DNA of 44,099 nt from Escherichia phage TR1. The translations under genes and the position numbers were made by a program. The stretch lies in the sequence record OP087522.1. The stretch is one strand, 5' to 3'. How positions within the stretch are numbered: position 1 is the first letter of the stretch; every line of letters begins with the position of its first letter. This document shows positions 2,009 through 29,868 of this stretch, piece after piece. The notes beneath the pieces are model-generated. The model saw only the letters and a list, made by a program, of their open reading frames with translations. It searched no databases and was not told the origin of the DNA.

Positions 2009-2051
2009 ATTATGCCTGATTTCTCCGGCGATTGTTTAGCAATTCGTGCTA
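2009..2051 (-). promoter_or_regulatory. promoter cassette copy: palindrome TAGCA-ATTCG-TGCTA (2037-2051), 22-bp spacer, -10 CATAAT (2009-2014)
   Basis: Exact spacing measured in sequence; palindrome overlaps stop codon of gene 2049..2579. Confidence 0.55.
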
Positions 2052-2579
2052 TTGTCCATTCATGAGTAACTTAGCTTTCCTATAAAACTCCATCGCCACC
2101 TCAACCTCTTCCTCACTGTACCGCAAGTGGTATGGTAGTCTACTAGTGTGCTCACCTTCGTATACTTTGAGGTTAGGTTCCCATCTCTCCTCTAGGATTG
2201 CGGGATGAACGTAAACCCTATCGCCAATTAGACATGTAAGATTCATCTTGTCGAGTTCTGGAATAAGCTCATCTTTAATGCGTGCAAATAGGCCAATTTC
2301 TCGCCCAACAAATGGCTTCAACTTGCGCACGCCTTCGTATATGGATTTAACCACGAACACACCTTTCCCGTGCCTTCCCATTCTCCTAATGACTTTAATG
2401 AGCACAGCAAGCTCACTACCTTCGTAGATTGACGACGCATCAGGCTTACCCCAAAATACCTGGGCTTGTCGATACCCGTTCTCATTGATTGCTACTCGTA
2501 GCGGAGGTAAACCATCTTTTTCTGCGATTTCAATTACCCGCTCATCTGTCAGTTTATCTTCGGTGAAATCAAACATCAT
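2049..2579 (-). CDS. hypothetical protein, internally deleted paralog of the 527-aa protein at 5233..6816
   Basis: N-terminus (FDFxEDKL...LPPLRVAINxNGYRQ) and C-terminal block (GKxGKGV...RKxKPF...RIKDxLxPxLDxxNxTCLIGD) align to the ends of the 527-aa ORF; central region absent. Confidence 0.6.
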   Translation of the reverse strand: MMFDFTEDKLTDERVIEIAEKDGLPPLRVAINENGYRQAQVFWGKPDASSIYEGSELAVLIKVIRRMGRHGKGVFVVKSIYEGVRKLKPFVGREIGLFARIKDELIPELDKMNLTCLIGDRVYVHPAILEERWEPNLKVYEGEHTSRLPYHLRYSEEEVEVAMEFYRKAKLLMNGQ

Positions 2580-3124
2580 TTAGCCTCCTTAATCATTTCC
2601 TGGTATGCAGATAGTGCGAGCAGGGCACCTTCAAGTTTTTCACCACTCAAGTGGATAATGCTCGGGGTGACTGCCAAAAGTCGTTTCTTGAATCTCTCAA
2701 TGGTAGCCGCCTCTTTATCAGCTTCCTGTTTCTTCTTCTCCCGATTGCCAGTCCAGTGCGCTCCGTTCTCAATATATATAACAAGGTACTTATCAGCGCC
2801 GTCGCCATCAAATTGCCTTGCGTTTGTCTGCTCCCCTTCGTCATCAATCCAGATAAACTTGTATCGCGCCCTCTTGTTTGCGTCTCGCAAGTCCGTCATT
2901 CGTGACACAGTGTTGTAGATGTATGAGTTCTTAAGCTCAGGTAATGACCTGTCTGCCAAATTTAATATCTCATCTGTTTCGGTGTCATACTCCATTTCCG
3001 GGTACGACCTTCCGCGAATCATTTTGAATATCTGGCTGACTGGAACCTTAAACTCACCACTTTCCGATTCCATCGCCTTTCGTACCATCTCACGGATAAC
3101 TTCACCAAGCGTTACTTTCTGCAT
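2576..3124 (-). CDS. hypothetical early protein (182 aa)
   Basis: ORF track; first gene of leftward transcription unit leaving the 3125-3827 control region. Confidence 0.55.
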   Translation of the reverse strand: MQKVTLGEVIREMVRKAMESESGEFKVPVSQIFKMIRGRSYPEMEYDTETDEILNLADRSLPELKNSYIYNTVSRMTDLRDANKRARYKFIWIDDEGEQTNARQFDGDGADKYLVIYIENGAHWTGNREKKKQEADKEAATIERFKKRLLAVTPSIIHLSGEKLEGALLALSAYQEMIKEAK

Positions 3125-3316
3125 TTCAAATACCTCGTTGTTGTGTGCTGCGTTTCAGTGATTACCATAGTGCCAGTGATTTACGTGTCGGTCAATGTAT
3201 ATTTTAGTATATTTCATCATAGATACGCTTTTTATCCATAGCAGCCCTATCTGCACTGGATGTAACCTTGCTGTATCCGCTGTGTACAGTTTTTCGAGGT
3301 AATTTCCTATATATGT

Positions 3317-3357
3317 GCCTTTTTGTTCTGACAAGTGTCATCCTATTCTGACAAGTG
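3317..3357. promoter_or_regulatory. tandem operator-like palindromes (TTCTGACAAGTGTCA; second copy a perfect 18-bp palindrome TTCTGACAAGTGTCAGAA), 23 bp centre-to-centre
   Basis: Direct reading: two copies at 3317-3331 and 3340-3357. Confidence 0.5.
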
Positions 3358-3397
3358 TCAGAATATAACAGAGGAATATATCAACTATTTCATCTAT

Positions 3398-3470
3398 GAG
3401 CGGTATACACAGTATACATATAATAATAATAATAATAATAATAAAGAAGAAGTATATATATATTATATAC
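3398..3470. repeat. repeat element with (AAT/TAA)8 microsatellite and flanking TATACACAGTA / ATATATAT blocks; second copy at 22843-22905
   Basis: Microsatellite 3421-3444; aligned by eye to 22843-22905, which has 5 units. Confidence 0.6.
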
Positions 3471-3639
3471 TTATAGTGTATATCCAGTGTATATGTCGCG
3501 TAAAAACCGTAGGTTAGTGGTCACTTACTTTTATGACCACACTGAGTATACATTAGTTACACGTATACAGGAAATGGTCCAGCCAGAATCAAAATCAACT
3601 TGTATGGTAGTCCATCCACCATTCATTCACCATCACATC

Positions 3640-3742
3640 AATAATTGCAAATTCTGCAACAATCAAAAACATCATTGCATCAGATGCAATATTGCTATAT
3701 GTGCAATAATGAGATGAATCATTGCAATAACTGCAATAATAC
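3640..3742. repeat. iteron-like cluster of at least 7 TGCAAT(AA) / ATCATTGCA repeats
   Basis: Direct reading of repeated 6-9-mers within about 100 bp of non-coding DNA. Confidence 0.5.
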
Positions 3743-3766
3743 ATAAACCCAACGAATAGCACTTTT

Positions 3767-3810
3767 TGCTAATGACATTCATTGGCGGCGGGACCATAAT
3801 GAATCCATCA
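3767..3810 (+). promoter_or_regulatory. promoter cassette copy (plus orientation): palindrome TAGCA-CTTTT-TGCTA (3767-3781), 23-bp spacer, -10 CATAAT (3805-3810)
   Basis: Same architecture as minus-strand copies; leader CCATCAACAACGAGGAGAG then ATG at 3828. Confidence 0.5.
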
Positions 3811-3827
3811 ACAACGAGGAGAGAGAT

Positions 3828-5232: not shown

Positions 5233-6816
5233 ATGTTTGATTTCAACGAAGATAAACTATCTGTTGAACAAGTTATGGCGATTGCCGCGACCGACAACCT
5301 CCCACCGCTTCGCGTGGCCATTAATGCAAATGGCTATCGGCAGTCTCAATCATTCTGGAAAACACCTGTGGAGATTGACGCAGGTAATGACAAGTACCCT
5401 GTAATATCTCTAGGCAATGACATTGATGTTGTTGGTAAGCTCTCGGCAAATATTGCTCGCTCAGTTCAGTTCCCAGAGTCATCAGCATACATGCACTTTT
5501 TGGGTTGTGTGTCCGCTGCGATGCTAGGGCGCTTTACTGTTGAGTATCACGGAACCCAGCAGCCAACATCGCTTTACGTGGTAACTAGCCAGCCGCCATC
5601 TACTGGTAAGTCAGCCATTAACTCTCTGTCAATTGCGCCAATGATTGCTGAGACTGAGCGTTTGAACGAGGTGCGTAAACGTGACCGCAAAAAGATTATG
5701 GCTAAGCTGTCTGCGCTAGCAAAAGAAATGAAACAGGAGAAGTCACCATCTGAGATGGCTTCACTGTTTGAGGAGAAGGAAGATTTAGAGGAAAAGCTCG
5801 AGAAGCTGTGCGATATCGTATTCCCGGTCTCAGATACTACGCCAGAAGGTCTTGCACGAATCAACAACCGCCAGGGTAACTTTGCGGTCATCTCGGATGA
5901 GGCAACAAGCGTCAACTCATTATTGGGCATGACATACGGTGATGGTTCCAAGAAAACGAACAGCGAGCTTGTACTTAAAGCGTGGGATGCTGGTAACGTA
6001 TCTATTGCCCGCGCTAACGCAGAAAACAACATGAGTTTCGTGGCAATGGGGTGCATCTCTGTAATTGCTCAGGATGAAACAATCAATGCGATTATGAATG
6101 CTGGTGCGCGTGGTATTGGTGTTTCCGAGCGTTTCCTTCTGGTGCGTGAAAAGTCATTTCTTGGAGACCGCGTGTTTGTTGATGAGAATGGCGATTCAAC
6201 ATACGAGGCTATTGATGGTGGTCTTAAGGCAGGCTATTTCCGTCTCGTTCATGAAATTATGAATGAAGTTGAAGTGAAACTGACAGTAAGTGCGTCATCC
6301 ATGCGCTACCTTAACCGAGCTCGCCAGGAAATGGAACCGCATCTTGGTGATGGCGGTAAATATTCCCACACGATGTTACGTGGTGCTCTTGGTAAATTTG
6401 ATAAGCAAGCAATCCGTATTGCCTCAGTATTGCACGTTATTCGCAACTGGTTCGCACCGGCAGGGTCGAGTCCGCAGAAATCAAGAGAGATTGAGCTTGA
6501 AACAATGCAAGAAGCGGTTATGATTTTCCACGAGTTAAGCAAGACTTATTTGTCGTCCGCTAGTGCTGCTGGTCATGCTGGTGATAATGCTGAAATGAAT
6601 AAGCTGGTTGATATCCTGATTAAGCAAGGTAAGAATGGGAAGGGTGTTGTTGGCGTTCGCTCACTGTATGAAGCAGCACGCAAAGTTAAACCTTTTGAAG
6701 GACAGGCTGGCGTAATGACTCGCATCAAGGACCACTTGGTTCCTATGCTTGATGAGAAAAACTATACATGCCTGATTGGTGATAAGATTTACATTAATCC
6801 GCGATTGTTGGGGTGA
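5233..6816 (+). CDS. large early protein with P-loop-like motif (VTSQPPSTGKS); function unknown, possibly replication-associated NTPase
   Basis: ORF track 527 aa; GGAGAGAAG RBS; motif read from translation; family assignment not verifiable without a search. Confidence 0.6.
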   Translation: MFDFNEDKLSVEQVMAIAATDNLPPLRVAINANGYRQSQSFWKTPVEIDAGNDKYPVISLGNDIDVVGKLSANIARSVQFPESSAYMHFLGCVSAAMLGRFTVEYHGTQQPTSLYVVTSQPPSTGKSAINSLSIAPMIAETERLNEVRKRDRKKIMAKLSALAKEMKQEKSPSEMASLFEEKEDLEEKLEKLCDIVFPVSDTTPEGLARINNRQGNFAVISDEATSVNSLLGMTYGDGSKKTNSELVLKAWDAGNVSIARANAENNMSFVAMGCISVIAQDETINAIMNAGARGIGVSERFLLVREKSFLGDRVFVDENGDSTYEAIDGGLKAGYFRLVHEIMNEVEVKLTVSASSMRYLNRARQEMEPHLGDGGKYSHTMLRGALGKFDKQAIRIASVLHVIRNWFAPAGSSPQKSREIELETMQEAVMIFHELSKTYLSSASAAGHAGDNAEMNKLVDILIKQGKNGKGVVGVRSLYEAARKVKPFEGQAGVMTRIKDHLVPMLDEKNYTCLIGDKIYINPRLLG

Positions 6817-14584: not shown

Positions 14585-14625
14585 TTTAAATATCCTGATA
14601 GTTCTTTAGTTCGTTGCATTGATGT

Positions 14626-14667
14626 ATAATAACAGCCATCGAACCCATTGTTTAACAAAAAGTGCTA
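14626..14667 (-). promoter_or_regulatory. promoter cassette copy: palindrome TAACA-AAAAG-TGCTA (14653-14667), 21-bp spacer, extended -10 TGTTATTAT
   Basis: Measured. Confidence 0.5.
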
Positions 14668-14680
14668 TTGAGGTAATGAG

Positions 14681-15154
14681 ATGTGTGAAATCGACAAGCG
14701 AACTATTAACGGCAATAACGGAACCGTGCGCACAAAAGACAAAAAGCAACGCAAACGACCATCAGGCTACTACGTATTGAAAGATGAGGTAAAGGCTGGG
14801 CTACGTGCTCGCCTGGAGATGGTTCTTGATTTCTACGGTACAAAGGCGAACATCGCAAAGCAGTTAAATGTGTCCAACCAAGCTGTATCGGAATGGTTTA
14901 ACCGCGGTATGATTTCGGCTCGAGGGGCTCAGCGAGCACATAATGCGTACAAGCGAAATAAGGAGGGATTTCGAGCTACATTCTGCCGACCAGACCTGCA
15001 ATTCGACGGAAACGGAAAACCGCTAACACTTCGATGCAAGAAGCGCCATATGCTTCGCGTAGTTACCGATGCAGAACTAGCAACAAAGCCACCCTGTCGA
15101 CCATGGCGCAAGAATAAGATTGCTAACGAGGCAGCACGAAAAGCTAAAGATTAA
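14681..15154 (+). CDS. HTH DNA-binding protein (Cro/YdaS-like helix-turn-helix), putative transcriptional regulator
   Basis: HTH signature ANIAKQLNVSNQAVSEWFNRGMIS; basic N-terminal region. Confidence 0.55.
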   Translation: MCEIDKRTINGNNGTVRTKDKKQRKRPSGYYVLKDEVKAGLRARLEMVLDFYGTKANIAKQLNVSNQAVSEWFNRGMISARGAQRAHNAYKRNKEGFRATFCRPDLQFDGNGKPLTLRCKKRHMLRVVTDAELATKPPCRPWRKNKIANEAARKAKD

Positions 15155-15206: not shown

Positions 15207-15686
15207 ATGAACTGGCATGATTATTTTTACTATGTAGATGGCAAATTGCATTGGAAGATTAGCACTGCAAGACGTGTTAAGGTTGGCGATGAGTGCAACT
15301 CACTATCTACATCTGGCTATTACAAAGTGTCTGTTAATGGCTTTAGGACTTATGTACATAGAGTTGTGTGGGAGATGTTTAATGGAGAGCTTCAAAATGG
15401 CGACTACATTGATCATATAAACCATAACAAATTAGATAACAGAATAGAAAACCTAAGAGTAACAACAAATCAAGGTAACTCAAGAAATTGCAAGCTTAGC
15501 GTTTTATCAACAAATGGTTATTGTGGAGTGGCAAAGCTAAATCACGGAAAATTTAAGGCTCACATCAAGGTTGACGGCAAGCATCTACACCTTGGGAACT
15601 TCGATACTCCAGAGCAGGCGTATAAAGTAAGAATTGAAGCAGAGAGAAAATACAACTTTCACGAAAATCACGGGTTAAGCAAATGA
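15207..15686 (+). CDS. HNH-AP2 homing endonuclease (paralog family copy 1)
   Basis: MNWxDxFxY N-terminus, HRVVWE...DHINHNKLDNRIENLR HNH core, AP2-like GV...G.F.T.E.A C-terminal domain. Confidence 0.75.
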   Translation: MNWHDYFYYVDGKLHWKISTARRVKVGDECNSLSTSGYYKVSVNGFRTYVHRVVWEMFNGELQNGDYIDHINHNKLDNRIENLRVTTNQGNSRNCKLSVLSTNGYCGVAKLNHGKFKAHIKVDGKHLHLGNFDTPEQAYKVRIEAERKYNFHENHGLSK

Positions 15687-20866: not shown

Positions 20867-20909
20867 ACTATACCTGAGCTATCCATTGTTGTTTTAGCAA
20901 TTTGTGCTA
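20867..20909 (-). promoter_or_regulatory. promoter cassette copy: palindrome TAGCA-ATTTG-TGCTA (20895-20909), 22-bp spacer, -10 TATAGT (20867-20872)
   Basis: Measured. Confidence 0.55.
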
Positions 20910-21385
20910 TTTCCGTGATTTCTATGAAATCCCAACTTAACCTCTTCGCTTTTTCTTGCTCTAGCGGCTTCCTCGATTGAGTCAAAACACCCAATGTGAT
21001 ACTCGTAACCATCCACACCCATTCTTGCTACATATTTTGATAGCCTTGGCACCCAACTAACACCCAGAACTCCGGTTTTGTTTGTTTTTCTCAATGACTG
21101 ATTCATGGCATTTCCTTGCCTATTCACCAATCGCAAGTTCTCAATCCTGTTATCATTTCTAATGTGATTTATGTGATCAACAAATAAACCACTAGGTATT
21201 TTACCATTTACGATATCCCATATAATTCTGTGAACCTTGTGCTCCCTGCCATCGTACCTCAACCTTACATAACCGTTAGTCTTACTTACATTTCCAGCAA
21301 CTTTACCAATGCAACCTCTAGTTCCGCTCATTATCTTCCATATCAAATTAACCCCATCGTAATCAAAAATTTCAGACCAGTTCAT
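20894..21385 (-). CDS. HNH-AP2 homing endonuclease (paralog family copy 2)
   Basis: MNWSEIFDY..., HRIIWD...DHINHIRNDNRIENLR, AP2-like GVSW...GCFDSIEEAARAR. Confidence 0.75.
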   Translation of the reverse strand: MNWSEIFDYDGVNLIWKIMSGTRGCIGKVAGNVSKTNGYVRLRYDGREHKVHRIIWDIVNGKIPSGLFVDHINHIRNDNRIENLRLVNRQGNAMNQSLRKTNKTGVLGVSWVPRLSKYVARMGVDGYEYHIGCFDSIEEAARARKSEEVKLGFHRNHGNSTNC

Positions 21386-22346: not shown

Positions 22347-22694
22347 TTATTCCTTAACCTTAACTACCTTAACAGATTTCAAATCTTCTTCAGTGAAGCA
22401 CCCGGTCAGAACATCTCGGGCTTCTTCTTTGGTCTCGAATCTGTCAGCCTCGTTTTTATCCGTTGTGTATCCAGCAGGGCCACCAAAGTAGCAATCGCCG
22501 AACAGTGCGTTGTTTTTCTCTTTGATAATGTAGTAGGTCATTTCTCTATCTCTCTGGTTGTTTGCTTTCGATGGGTTAACTATATATTCGGCACGGTAGC
22601 TAGTCCAATTGGTTTTGCCAATCGTTGACTCAGACTTACGCGTGAATCCTTGTAATTTCGTGTAGGCATTGCCAATGGTTACGCTTTCTGGCAT
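22347..22694 (-). CDS. hypothetical protein (115 aa), first gene leftward from second control region
   Basis: ORF track. Confidence 0.5.
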   Translation of the reverse strand: MPESVTIGNAYTKLQGFTRKSESTIGKTNWTSYRAEYIVNPSKANNQRDREMTYYIIKEKNNALFGDCYFGGPAGYTTDKNEADRFETKEEARDVLTGCFTEEDLKSVKVVKVKE

Positions 22695-22842
22695 CTCGGC
22701 CCAGCTATAGCTTAATGTAACTAGTGTGTATATCGTGTATACCGTTTCTCGCTAAGGGTGCATCGGTATAGCTGCCGCGCAATACTGTATAAATCCACAT
22801 GATATTAAAATTATAACCGGAACACTCTATAGAAGTAGTTAC

Positions 22843-22905
22843 ATGATATACACAGTAATATATAATAATAATAATAAGAGTAAAAGCTTGATATATATAG
22901 ATATT
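22843..22905. repeat. second copy of (AAT)n-containing repeat element (5 units) with GTATAC/GTAAC motifs nearby
   Basis: TATACACAGTA-ATATATAATAATAATAATAA aligned by eye to 3398-3446. Confidence 0.6.
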
Positions 22906-23002
22906 TTAATGTAACTAATGCGTAACTAGGCGTAACAGCGCGTATACCATTTTCCGCGGACGAGATTGTATACACCGAGTTACATCGGTTACGCGTATAC
23001 AA

Positions 23003-23046
23003 TAGCACGAATAGCTAAAGACTCCGTAATCATCCTTTGCTATAGT
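23003..23046 (+). promoter_or_regulatory. promoter cassette copy (plus): palindrome TAGCA-CGAAT-AGCTA (23003-23017), 23-bp spacer, -10 TATAGT (23041-23046), leader CATCGAAACGAAA
   Basis: Measured. Confidence 0.55.
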
Positions 23047-23086
23047 TACTCCATCGAAACGAAACACACTCACTAAGGAATACAAA

Positions 23087-23317
23087 ATGACTAACTTCAT
23101 CAAATCAGCAATAATCGCGGCAGCAGTAATCATGACTGTAGGTTGTTCTTCCGGACCCCGACCTGACGGTTGGTGCGCGACTGAAGTTAACGGCTCATGT
23201 GTTGCTAAATGGAAAGGAGGTGTAGTTGTAGCTTCAGGTGAAACAGATATCCGCTGGGATGGTATCAAAAACTTCTCTGGATCAGTTAAAGATCATGGCA
23301 CAAAGGAGTGGAAATAA
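23087..23317 (+). CDS. small lipoprotein (76 aa), candidate Cor/Llp-like superinfection-exclusion protein
   Basis: Signal peptide with lipobox (IMTVGCSS); beside the J-like tail tip gene on the opposite strand with its own promoter. Confidence 0.5.
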
Positions 23318-28348: not shown

Positions 28349-29087
28349 AAATTACATCCTCTGGTAAATCCTTATGGCGAACAATGCGAACAGTTCGCTC
28401 GCGCCAGTAATCGGAATAAATATCTACAGAACTCATTTTACCATAAAGGTGATGTATGAATCTGTTGTTGCCAATGTAGATTCCTGCGTGGTTAGTAACC
28501 TCGCTTTGTACTTGCATCATGATCATTGAGCCAATTGGAATATCTGAAGTTTTTACTAGCTCAAAACCTTCCTTAACCCAGTTGTCGTCATAGATATTTT
28601 CCCCGTACCTCTTCTCCCACCACGGGTAATTAACTCGGTAGTCGTTTAGTTTGACGCTGTATTTTTTGTGAAATCCCATGACTAACTCCCAGCAATCAAA
28701 GCTACCCAAACCCCACGGTCGACCAATCAGTGGCATTGTTGATGGTTCAAGTATCCTCATGTCTCCTTCTGGAATACTGACGATAACATAAGGGATCTCG
28801 CACTCGTTGCAGCTACAGATATCCGCTGGGCTAGGTCTTGTTGTCGCACCATCACCAGTGTGGGAGTGAACTACGTAAACAATTGACTCGTTATCAACCA
28901 GATTAAATGCAATGTCGGCATACTCATTTGAATCAAGTACAAACTCATTTTCAGGGTCTTTGCTGACATTGGTTATTCTATGATACTTCTGCGCACGACC
29001 CTTCTGCGTAACAACTCCACAGCACTCATGCGGGTAAACTTCCTTTGCGTGCTGGAAAATTTCCAGTTTAACCTTTGAACTTAACAT
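28329..29087 (-). CDS. tail assembly protein K-like (JAB/MPN plus NlpC/P60)
   Basis: HSHTGDGATTRPSPADI (JAB-like) and Cys/His peptidase motifs; start moved to ATG 29087 (GAGGGA RBS) from ORF-track 29174. Confidence 0.65.
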   Translation of the reverse strand: MLSSKVKLEIFQHAKEVYPHECCGVVTQKGRAQKYHRITNVSKDPENEFVLDSNEYADIAFNLVDNESIVYVVHSHTGDGATTRPSPADICSCNECEIPYVIVSIPEGDMRILEPSTMPLIGRPWGLGSFDCWELVMGFHKKYSVKLNDYRVNYPWWEKRYGENIYDDNWVKEGFELVKTSDIPIGSMIMMQVQSEVTNHAGIYIGNNRFIHHLYGKMSSVDIYSDYWRERTVRIVRHKDLPEDVIYDPETD

Positions 29088-29100
29088 TAATAAATCCCTC

Positions 29101-29868
29101 TTAGTTCTGATTGGCCTTTGCCTGAAGGCTTGCTGCCGCACAACCGCCGAAATCCAATTGATTGTTAGCGCCAAATCTAATTTTGCAACTGTTTACCGTT
29201 CCGGAGCAGAAGTCTAATGAGGGATCACTAACTGGGTTATCATCTTTATCAAAGTATCGGTTTCCAGCATAGGCGCAACCATTGCCGCTACGATACCAGC
29301 CACGAGAAGCCCAATAGCAAACTGACTGAACAAGTCGCGCTGGAATGTAAATTCCATCCATATCCATTGGGCTACTTAGCTCAAACGAGGCAGTCTTGTA
29401 GTCAACCTGCTTTGGTCGCTCAATGAAGTAAACGAATCGTCGATAGTCCCCATCAGCGATGCTTCCGTCTTCATTGATGTTATCGCGCGTAGTAATCCAG
29501 ATAGTAACCTTAGCCTTAACTAGACCATTGTATTCACGAATCAATGCGCTAATGCGCTGGTCTACGTTTGATACTGTCAGAGTAACCTTGTTTGCCTTGC
29601 CGTCAGAAGTCATATTGATACCCGAGATACCAAATGGTCGGGGCCCATACTCTTCACCGCGGAAGGTAATTGTCTTCTCTGGCAGTGGCTCTCCGTTCAT
29701 TTGGGCCAGCATGATTTCCTCTGGCGTGTATGAGATGTTTTCATTGTGGAAATTATAAACGAGACTACCAAATGCCGTCCCATCAACCTGGATTAGTGTC
29801 ACAATCTCGCCAGGGAAAAGGCTTTGCAACTGATTTTCAAACTTTGGACTTAACATGATTTTCTCCAA
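29101..29868 (-). CDS. minor tail protein (lambda L-like)
   Basis: Position and size; C-terminal Cys cluster. Confidence 0.55.
   Translation of the reverse strand: MEKIMLSPKFENQLQSLFPGEIVTLIQVDGTAFGSLVYNFHNENISYTPEEIMLAQMNGEPLPEKTITFRGEEYGPRPFGISGINMTSDGKANKVTLTVSNVDQRISALIREYNGLVKAKVTIWITTRDNINEDGSIADGDYRRFVYFIERPKQVDYKTASFELSSPMDMDGIYIPARLVQSVCYWASRGWYRSGNGCAYAGNRYFDKDDNPVSDPSLDFCSGTVNSCKIRFGANNQLDFGGCAAASLQAKANQN

Follow-up and report, generated by a model that had tools for sequence, protein, structure and literature searches.

The Bacillus siphovirus SPP1, a pac-type headful phage of about 44 kb, carries two replication origins, oriL and oriR, each of which combines direct repeats with an AT-rich DNA-unwinding element (DUE) and both of which are bound by one initiator, and oriR lies within a non-coding, moron-containing segment of the genome (PMC6316719). 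The second origin is thought to trigger a switch to recombination-dependent replication, with the SPP1 exonuclease, annealing protein and SSB thought to act after fork arrest at this second site (PMC6316719). Here, we report on two intergenic regions of Escherichia phage TR1 (sequence record OP087522.1; the window is the whole stretch of 44,099 nt that was analyzed, and all TR1 positions refer to it), region A at 3125-3827 and region B at 22695-23086, which hold the two copies of a cis-acting module of T1-family phages. The A copy spans 3402-3569 and the B copy 22836-23000. TR1 is an Rtp-like T1-family coliphage (Drexlerviridae, Braunvirinae).

Other described systems also bear on the module. 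In the satellite phage P4, ori and crr are two separated cis elements with the same short iterons, direct and inverted, beside AT-rich DNA, and the alpha protein unites primase, helicase and, at its C-terminus, an origin-binding domain in a single polypeptide. The oriS and oriL of herpes simplex virus are built from an AT-rich centre and inverted initiator boxes, are present in several copies and each lie between divergently transcribed genes. In Mu, an IHF site lies between the operators. T1 itself belongs to the seven classical T phages, and phages of its family commonly contaminate laboratories and fermentations; to our knowledge, the replication origin of T1 has never been located. Published analyses of T1-family genomes found no replication origin (PMC7718038, PMC11447400), and the TLS study found no iterons anywhere in that genome (PMC11447400). 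Nothing of relevance on the transcriptome or origin of T1 came from our literature searches, and the module is undescribed in the accessible literature, a coverage outside which the original T1 (2004) and Rtp (2006) genome papers fall.

A conserved module at two loci

A preliminary description of this DNA had proposed that region B shares with region A a repeat element in which the number of trinucleotide units varies. Comparison of the two regions by blastn bore this out: 3404-3435 paired with 22847-22877 at 30/32 identities (E 2e-9; aligned block TATACACAGTA[TAC]ATATAATAATAATAATAA), and the repeat has eight units in A, (TAA)8 at 3421-3444, and five in B, (TAA)5 at 22863-22877, as had been stated. 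The coordinates first assigned to the element were slightly off (the starts by 4-6 nt, the A end by about 16 nt and the B end by about 5 nt) and the rest was right. Within the window, TAATAATAA has no other occurrence, and the 3-unit AATAATAAT is also present at 593. The Smith-Waterman score between A and B was 60, compared to 24.4 +/- 3.5 for 300 dinucleotide shuffles (z 10.3). The similarity extends past the simple repeat, since with the microsatellite masked the best alignment was a collinear block pairing 3539-3569 with 22972-23001 (score 35, z 3.7, attained by 1/300 shuffles), the consensus of which is ACACyGAGT(A)TACATyrGTTACrCGTATACA. Within TR1, this similarity beyond the repeat is modest because the TR1 A copy has diverged. 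The recurrence of GTATAC in both regions, also noted earlier, was confirmed, with 8 of the window's 16 copies falling in A and B. GTTACA, GTATAC and GTATAT were enriched 8-27-fold within +/-200 bp of both centres, and the density of GTATAC/GTAAC-type motifs reaches its genome maximum at A and B.

The comparison set comprised ten other genomes from five lineages, with the A and B sequences compared in nine and, in TH21, the loci found only. The suggestion of a duplicated cis-acting element was supported, with the module found at these two loci in 10/10 genomes and its copies alike wherever compared (9/9: Rtp, SU57, T145P1, 12397V, Msk, A110b, IME542, T1 and TLS). The A and B copies match at 69/88 nt in T1 (E 2e-9) and at 31/37 in TLS, and Sd1 and phiA2-1 also have both copies. 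Over the 42 nt to the right of the tract, A and B are 76-90% identical in most relatives and 67% identical in TR1. Identity over the 185-nt B core is 80-98% among 134 phage records, each covering at least 80% of the core; its right flanking gene is 72-78% identical and its left one 88-92%, indicating that conservation of the core equals or exceeds that of the adjoining genes. The genes beside B differ between phages, where a lipoprotein, a Dcm methylase, a pRha-type regulator and an anti-repressor are found. A host or plasmid origin of the module was rejected because searches of 5,426 E. coli genomes and 72,556 plasmids gave no match to it, and an IMG/VR search for it returned only one new contig.

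Recent recombination between the two regions had been offered as an explanation for their likeness, but the copies group by locus, A with A and B with B, and there is no sign of recent exchange. On the sequence evidence, the A/B duplication predates the subfamily split. The statement that both regions sit where transcription diverges holds for TR1, in which each lies between divergently oriented open reading frames (ORFs), but not as a universal rule: the B copy of TLS is flanked by tspJ and recE on the same strand, and a divergent setting is therefore not essential.

Duplex stability was calculated from nearest-neighbor energies for segments of 40, 60 and 100 bp (genome mean for 60 bp, -80.7 kcal/mol; SD 4.8). 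At all three lengths, A and B were the first and second least stable segments of TR1, with 60-bp values of -53.0 and -57.6 kcal/mol (z about 5.8 and 4.8) followed by -65.2 for the next-ranked segment. The two least stable 60-bp segments also fell at the A and B loci in 10/10 comparison genomes, nine of which are complete, including T1 and TLS. In these nine, z was 4.5-5.8 at A and B and 3.0-3.8 for the third-ranked segment, and in TH21, covered over the first 50,000 of 52,087 bases, the same two loci ranked at the top with z of 5.7 and 5.4.

The module is laid out as an AT-rich core, formed by (TA)n(TAA)m and a second AT block, between inverted flanking arrays in 9-11-bp phase, the sites of which are GTTACA, GTATAC, GTATAT and GCGTAAC (Table 1). 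In Braunvirinae modules, an IHF-like site lies between the two AT blocks. B contains thirteen short sites within about 290 bp, with a direct array spaced at 11, 10 and 10 bp (R1) and an inverted second array, and AGTTACAT in its left arm is the inverted repeat of ATGTAACT at 22909-22916. A shares this plan, and in each copy the sites of the left arm are oriented opposite to those of the right arm. The IHF consensus WATCAANNNNTTR has only 4 matches in 44 kb, TATCAAGCTTTTA beside the B tract among them, and relatives have TATCAACCTTTTA at both A and B. Upon comparison of the sequences, the IHF-like site was found to be absent from the TR1 A copy and from Rogunavirinae, T1 and TLS; the A copies of TR1 and phiA2-1 have AGAAGAAGTATATATATATTATATAC in place of the GTAAAAGGTTGATATATATAG block, which carries the IHF-like site in most relatives.

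The enrichment of GTTACA, GTATAC and GTATAT around the A and B centres is common to TR1, Rtp and T1, with no GTTCAC there. In TLS, the two modules (about 28707-29117 and 49708-588; site motif (T)GTTCACG / CGTGAAC) contain GTTCAC/GTGAAC in 3 and 2 copies, compared to 0.19 expected, and no GTTACA, GTATAC or GTATAT. Given that the motif switches together at both TLS copies and that the host is E. coli throughout, the reader would be one phage-encoded protein and not a host protein. Probably, a single phage-encoded protein whose specificity has changed reads both copies, with both following it.

Several other accounts of this DNA were considered and rejected. Coding ORFs over the module (22811-23008, 22915-23268 and 3335-3517) are at odds with indels that are not multiples of three, and almost all records are unannotated there. 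Joint duplication of the element with an adjoining gene is at odds with the left neighbours, 2576-3124 and 22347-22694, which are unrelated. For a structured RNA or cruciform, folding z-scores relative to shuffles were an unremarkable -2.0, +0.7 and -1.3, and the sole Rfam match in the window was a tRNA gene at 325-397 on the minus strand (RF00005, 59 bits), situated among small early ORFs. There was no clustering of GATC in A or B.

Proposed paired origin-like modules and the alternatives

Quite possibly, A and B are paired replication-origin-like modules, as are oriL and oriR of SPP1, and this is the reading that we tentatively favor. By analogy, the layout is that of iteron-type origins: both loci have phased clusters of short sites and, adjacent to them, an AT-rich element of low stability. 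The genomes of T1-family phages have genes for a primase, two helicases (DUF3987 and SNF2-type), SSB and a Cro-like helix-turn-helix (HTH) protein (P22_Cro at E 1e-5, which is below the Pfam cut-off; phrog_2856; 1rzs at E 0.04), but none for a polymerase (also reported in PMC11447400), and therefore the phage must open its DNA and load a helicase somewhere.

We infer protein binding, the binder and replication initiation as follows. One phage-encoded, sequence-specific DNA-binding protein, for which the Cro-like HTH protein is the first candidate, would coat both arrays, and array binding plus bending would strain and open the AT core. The DUF3987 helicase and primase would load at the opened core and recruit host Pol III. 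A and B would be two replication origins, or an origin and an auxiliary or late site, and B, directly upstream of recE-erf-ssb, may be likened to SPP1 oriR in a theta-to-sigma switch model. The trinucleotide repeat would be a slippage-prone filling of the unwinding element, its length drifting because only AT-richness matters there and not spacing. A fuller version, to be taken as one joint claim, is unlikely: a single phage protein would serve two origin-like modules, of which A adjoins pac and the early genes and B precedes recE-erf-ssb, with B acting as a second origin or, as has been proposed for SPP1 oriR, as a site of fork arrest at which theta replication gives way to recombination-dependent synthesis of concatemers, and with the drifting length of (TA)n(TAA)m modulating the ease with which each copy opens.

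Several points weigh against origin function. Both copies are located within promoter-bearing intergenic DNA, which is generally AT-rich and unstable, and the records of AHP24 and EC3a have sigma-70 promoters annotated on the core. Transcriptional control would account equally well for a Cro-like HTH protein and for arrays between promoters. GC skew tracks the coding strand, with no replication signature at B in TLS, and among TR1, T1 and TLS the sequence identity of neither candidate binder clearly tracks the motif switch. The helicase C-terminal domain was rejected as a P4-like origin binder; it models as a winged helix (pLDDT 79) with generic PDB matches (E > 0.04), the P4 domain was not retrieved among the PDB matches listed, and its pattern of identity does not co-vary with the DNA motif. 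Finally, these repeats may already be on record in the genome papers of T1 (2004) and Rtp (2006).

The main alternative, plausible though somewhat doubtful, is that A and B are operator or enhancer arrays, similar to lambda OL/OR or to Mu O1-O3 with IHF, through which the Cro-like or another early protein switches the early and recE promoters, the AT tract being an UP-like or bendable element. Both copies do lie upstream of operons in promoter-bearing DNA, a Cro-type HTH protein is encoded, and an IHF-like site lies between the arrays. In B, the perfect minus-strand -10 TATAAT at 22815-22810 has no -35 match and has TGTAAC at about -40 to -35, and the plus strand has GTTACA-N17-TATAAT (10/12). 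The start of the recognition helix is VSNQAV in TR1, VSNQTV in T1 and VNLKTV in TLS, which has a different DNA motif. However, Rtp has VTPQAV with the same DNA motif as TR1, and the co-variation of helix and motif is therefore weak. The leftward -10 is conserved in Braunvirinae but absent in Rogunavirinae, which keep the core where the leftward -10 region is replaced, and the arrays flank the AT core without overlapping recognizable core promoter hexamers. Thirteen sites over about 290 bp around the least stable DNA exceed the needs of known operator sets, and a third divergent region, 14585-14680, which adjoins the regulator gene, is without such sites. Unlike palindromic 14-20-bp operators that overlap core promoters, the sites form direct arrays of 6-8-bp units, and the sole classical palindrome, TTCTGACAAGTGTCAGAA, is in A alone. 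The origin and operator readings are compatible, since coupling of origins to promoters is frequent.

It is improbable that A and B are simply AT-rich promoter or UP-element DNA with a microsatellite and no specific function, kept alike by chance or by constraint on composition. In phages, DNA between genes is AT-rich, and similarity outside the microsatellite is modest in TR1 (z 3.7), but the non-AT arrays are 80-98% conserved in the 134 records, the motif switches in concert at both TLS loci, and the element persists while neighboring genes are exchanged.

The preliminary description had also raised the possibility that the tract tunes promoter spacing. We consider it highly improbable that (TAA)n is the spacer of a sigma-70 promoter in which slippage tunes or phase-varies expression. 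A single promoter-like pair, the minus-strand TTTACT-N16-TATATT in B (9/12), has the tract as its spacer, and the B tracts of TR1 and IME542 are one unit apart, TR1 having one TAA fewer, within flanks that are 99% identical. However, this match is weak, and the 5 promoter-like matches are within the expectation from shuffles (2.4 +/- 1.9). By hand count, the minus-strand spacer is 16 nt in TR1, 18 in Rtp and 19 in IME542. In the plus-strand pair, the -10 is positioned at the (TA)/(TAA) junction with (TAA)n downstream, and the spacer counted by hand in relatives is 17, 19 or 21 nt. A hexamer scan of region A revealed no counterpart of either pair and no equivalent -35, and the TR1 A copy is wholly without the -35-like AGTAAA block. 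Given that the spacer varies, that the matches are within shuffle expectation and that none is present in A, tuning of promoter spacing is not supported; spacing is not conserved among relatives, and no conserved -35/-10 pair spans the tract.

Across relatives, the (TA)n(TAA)m tract measures 15-22 nt at B and 18-27 nt at A, with no preferred register, and the TR1 A tract has one TAA more than that of phiA2-1, which has (TAA)7. The tracts are identical in three T145P1 assemblies, with no hint of hypervariability, and 5-8 trinucleotide units are short for high-rate slippage. From these comparisons, what matters in the tract appears to be its composition and not its length, and a length that is free between 15 and 27 nt fits an unwinding element better than a spacer. 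The microsatellite should not be annotated as a phase-variation switch.

That the modules are packaging (pac) recognition elements for the small terminase can hardly be credited, for although region A holds the positions at which the records of T1, Rtp and SU57 start, the T1 terminal repeat (1-2800) starts from it and the SU57 start was chosen at a step in read coverage (PMC7718038), the record starts lie 150-260 bp to the right of the A tract and map to the A-specific blocks 3591-3617 and 3632-3740, so the module is not pac, and a second copy 19 kb away would yield a second packaging series, whereas TLS is described with only one submolar pac fragment.

With two conserved candidates of about 170 bp, the question of the origin becomes testable, and the genome's two least stable duplex segments, each with lineage-specific site arrays, provide a family-wide signature. 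If the modules are regulatory instead, they would still mark where the early and recombination operons are chiefly controlled in cis, and the Cro-like protein would be the factor to study.

Features and genomic setting

Table 1. Features of the two module copies and related elements of TR1 (positions in the window).
Feature	Position	Strand	Sequence or sites	Remarks
A left arm	3402-3418		GGTATACACAGTATACA; two GTATACA sites, 9 bp apart	
A microsatellite	3419-3444		(TA)2(TAA)8, 26 nt	Core of the window's least stable duplex segment
A-specific AT block	3445-3477		AGAAGAAGTATATATATATTATATACTTATAGT	Found otherwise just in phiA2-1
A right arm	3476-3513	+	GTGTATAT, GTGTATAT, GCGTAAAA, CCGTAGG; spacing 11, 11, 9 bp	
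A distal sites	3539-3569		GAGTATAC / GTTACA / CGTATACA	Aligns to 22972-23001
B distal left array	22715-22745		TGTAAC / GTGTATAT / GTGTATAC; spacing 11, 9 bp	Kept in Braunvirinae
Perfect candidate -10	22815-22810	-	TATAAT	Putative promoter of the leftward rtp46/recE/erf/ssb operon
B left arm	22836-22858		TAGTTACATGATATACACAGTAA; two reverse-orientation sites	Nearly invariant in 19 phages
B microsatellite	22859-22877		(TA)3(TAA)5, 19 nt	Core of the window's second least stable duplex segment
IHF-like core	22893-22881	-	TATCAAGCTTTTA	Consensus WATCAANNNNTTR
Second AT block	22890-22909		GATATATATAGATATTTTAA	Common to A and B copies of most Braunvirinae
B right arm R1	22910-22949	+	TGTAAC, GCGTAAC, GCGTAAC, GCGTATAC	Starts 22911, 22922, 22932, 22942
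Palindrome between right-hand arrays	22952-22960		TTCCGCGGA	Flanks the A copy of Rtp-type phages too
B right arm R2	22968-23000	-	Inverted array GTATAC, GTTAC, GTTAC, GTATAC	Second A/B similarity block
T1-type 21-nt repeat (marbox-like)	23002-23021	+	ATAGCACGAATAGCTAAAGA	
Candidate rightward lipoprotein promoter	23002-23046	+	21-nt repeat, 19 nt, -10 TATAGT	
Further 21-nt boxes (starts)	2052(-), 4566(+), 8627(-), 9837(-), 12177(-), 14668(-)			
Further 21-nt boxes (starts)	16670(-), 20910(-), 30790(-), 34730(-), 1135(-)			
DUF3987 helicase	5233-6816	+		
Cro-like HTH protein gene	14681-15154			Between primase and SNF2-helicase genes

Region B and its flanks are 99% identical to vB_EcoS_IME542, and region A is 88-91% identical to phiA2-1, its closest relative, and just 71% identical to IME542; the two regions have different nearest relatives, and the TR1 genome is therefore mosaic. 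To the left of B, in leftward order, are an rtp46-like ORF, recE, an HNH gene, erf and ssb, and to its right is an rtp45-like lipoprotein gene with its ATG at 23087. A separates two blocks of small early genes that diverge from each other, and it is here that the records of T1, Rtp and SU57 open. The HNH endonuclease ORFs of TR1 are located at 15207-15686 (+), in the gap between the regulator and primase genes, and at 20894-21385 (-), in that between erf and recE. Rtp is without an HNH ORF at either position, and IME542 has the erf/recE one.

An ORF of 176 aa at 2049-2579 (-) corresponds to the N-terminal 45 and C-terminal 77 residues of the DUF3987 helicase, with the ATPase core missing. The N-terminal part is 69% identical to the helicase and the C-terminal part 47%, and the part in common with the helicase C-terminus models as a winged helix (pLDDT 79). 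The product may be a regulator or competitor of the helicase.

Region A also contains elements that B does not. A perfect palindrome, TTCTGACA-AG-TGTCAGAA, is found within 3326-3363 with a degenerate second copy 20 bp upstream; it is confined to region A, is conserved in relatives and looks like an operator for a dimeric HTH protein. The block AAAATCAACTTGTATGGTAGTCCATCC at 3591-3617 is near-invariant across all A regions, and it is followed at 3632-3740 by a TGCAAy repeat array of three units of about 30 nt; both are absent from B. The SU57 record starts exactly at the block, those of T1 and Rtp start 60-100 bp further, inside the TGCAAy array, and the pac region is probably made up of the block and the array together.

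The T1-type 21-nt intergenic repeat ATAGCACnnnTTGCTAAAnn forms the right end of both regions (23002-23046 and 3756-3800), and its function is listed as an open question in the TLS paper (PMC11447400). A sigma-70 scan of the whole 44 kb gave no 11/12 or 12/12 match, with most 10/12 matches intragenic, and canonical -35/-10 promoters seem almost absent from TR1. The marbox consensus for MarA/SoxS/Rob, reportedly given by Martin and colleagues in 1999, is AYnGCACnnWnnRYYAAAY, and in this form it had 12 matches with at most one mismatch, compared to 1.04 expected, a count reached in 0/100 shuffles. A TAnnnT hexamer (e.g., TATAAT or TATAGT) is present 17-19 nt past the 20-nt box at 8/13 ATAGCAC boxes, six of them at exactly 18, and two further ATAGCAC boxes have CATAAT at 19-20 nt. 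This geometry, with the box in forward orientation and overlapping the -35, is the layout of class II marbox promoters, and it was also found at 12/16 boxes in Rtp, 12/19 in T1 and 9/13 in SU57, with a hexamer background of about 5%. A tblastn search of the phage with a MarA sequence as the query found no MarA homologue. Taken from the sequence patterns, this suggests that most T1-like phage promoters may depend on host Rob/MarA/SoxS or on an unrecognized phage mimic.

Comparison with known systems

In phase-variable promoters, such as those of Haemophilus hif with a (TA)n tract and of Neisseria opc/porA, the distance between -35 and -10 is set by a repeat number that differs within populations; homopolymer tracts are known from Neisseria promoters. 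TR1 is like them in having a slippage-prone repeat within promoter-like DNA between divergent genes, but no conserved hexamer pair spans the TR1 tract and there is no length register. Lambda OL/OR and Mu O1-O3 with IHF also place duplicated sites, or arrays of sites, for an HTH protein in the DNA of early promoters; however, their operators are 14-20-bp units that overlap the -35/-10 hexamers next to the regulator gene, whereas TR1 has 6-8-bp units in phased arrays around a melt-prone core, with the HTH gene about 8 kb away. Herpes simplex virus infects eukaryotes and its proteins are unrelated, and the likeness to it is confined to layout.

With respect to P4, annotation likens the T1-family primase to primases of the P4-alpha type, and the TLS motif TGTTCACG resembles the P4 type I iteron TGTTCACC. 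Unlike P4 alpha, the primase (307 aa) and helicase of TR1 are separate proteins.

SPP1 shares no sequence or protein homology with TR1 and uses gp38, a loader and a DnaB-type helicase. Its oriL lies inside the initiator gene, whereas both TR1 copies are intergenic, and its origin function is proven, whereas that of the TR1 modules is proposed. Like SPP1, TR1 has two similar modules per genome, and module B is placed directly before recE-erf-ssb.

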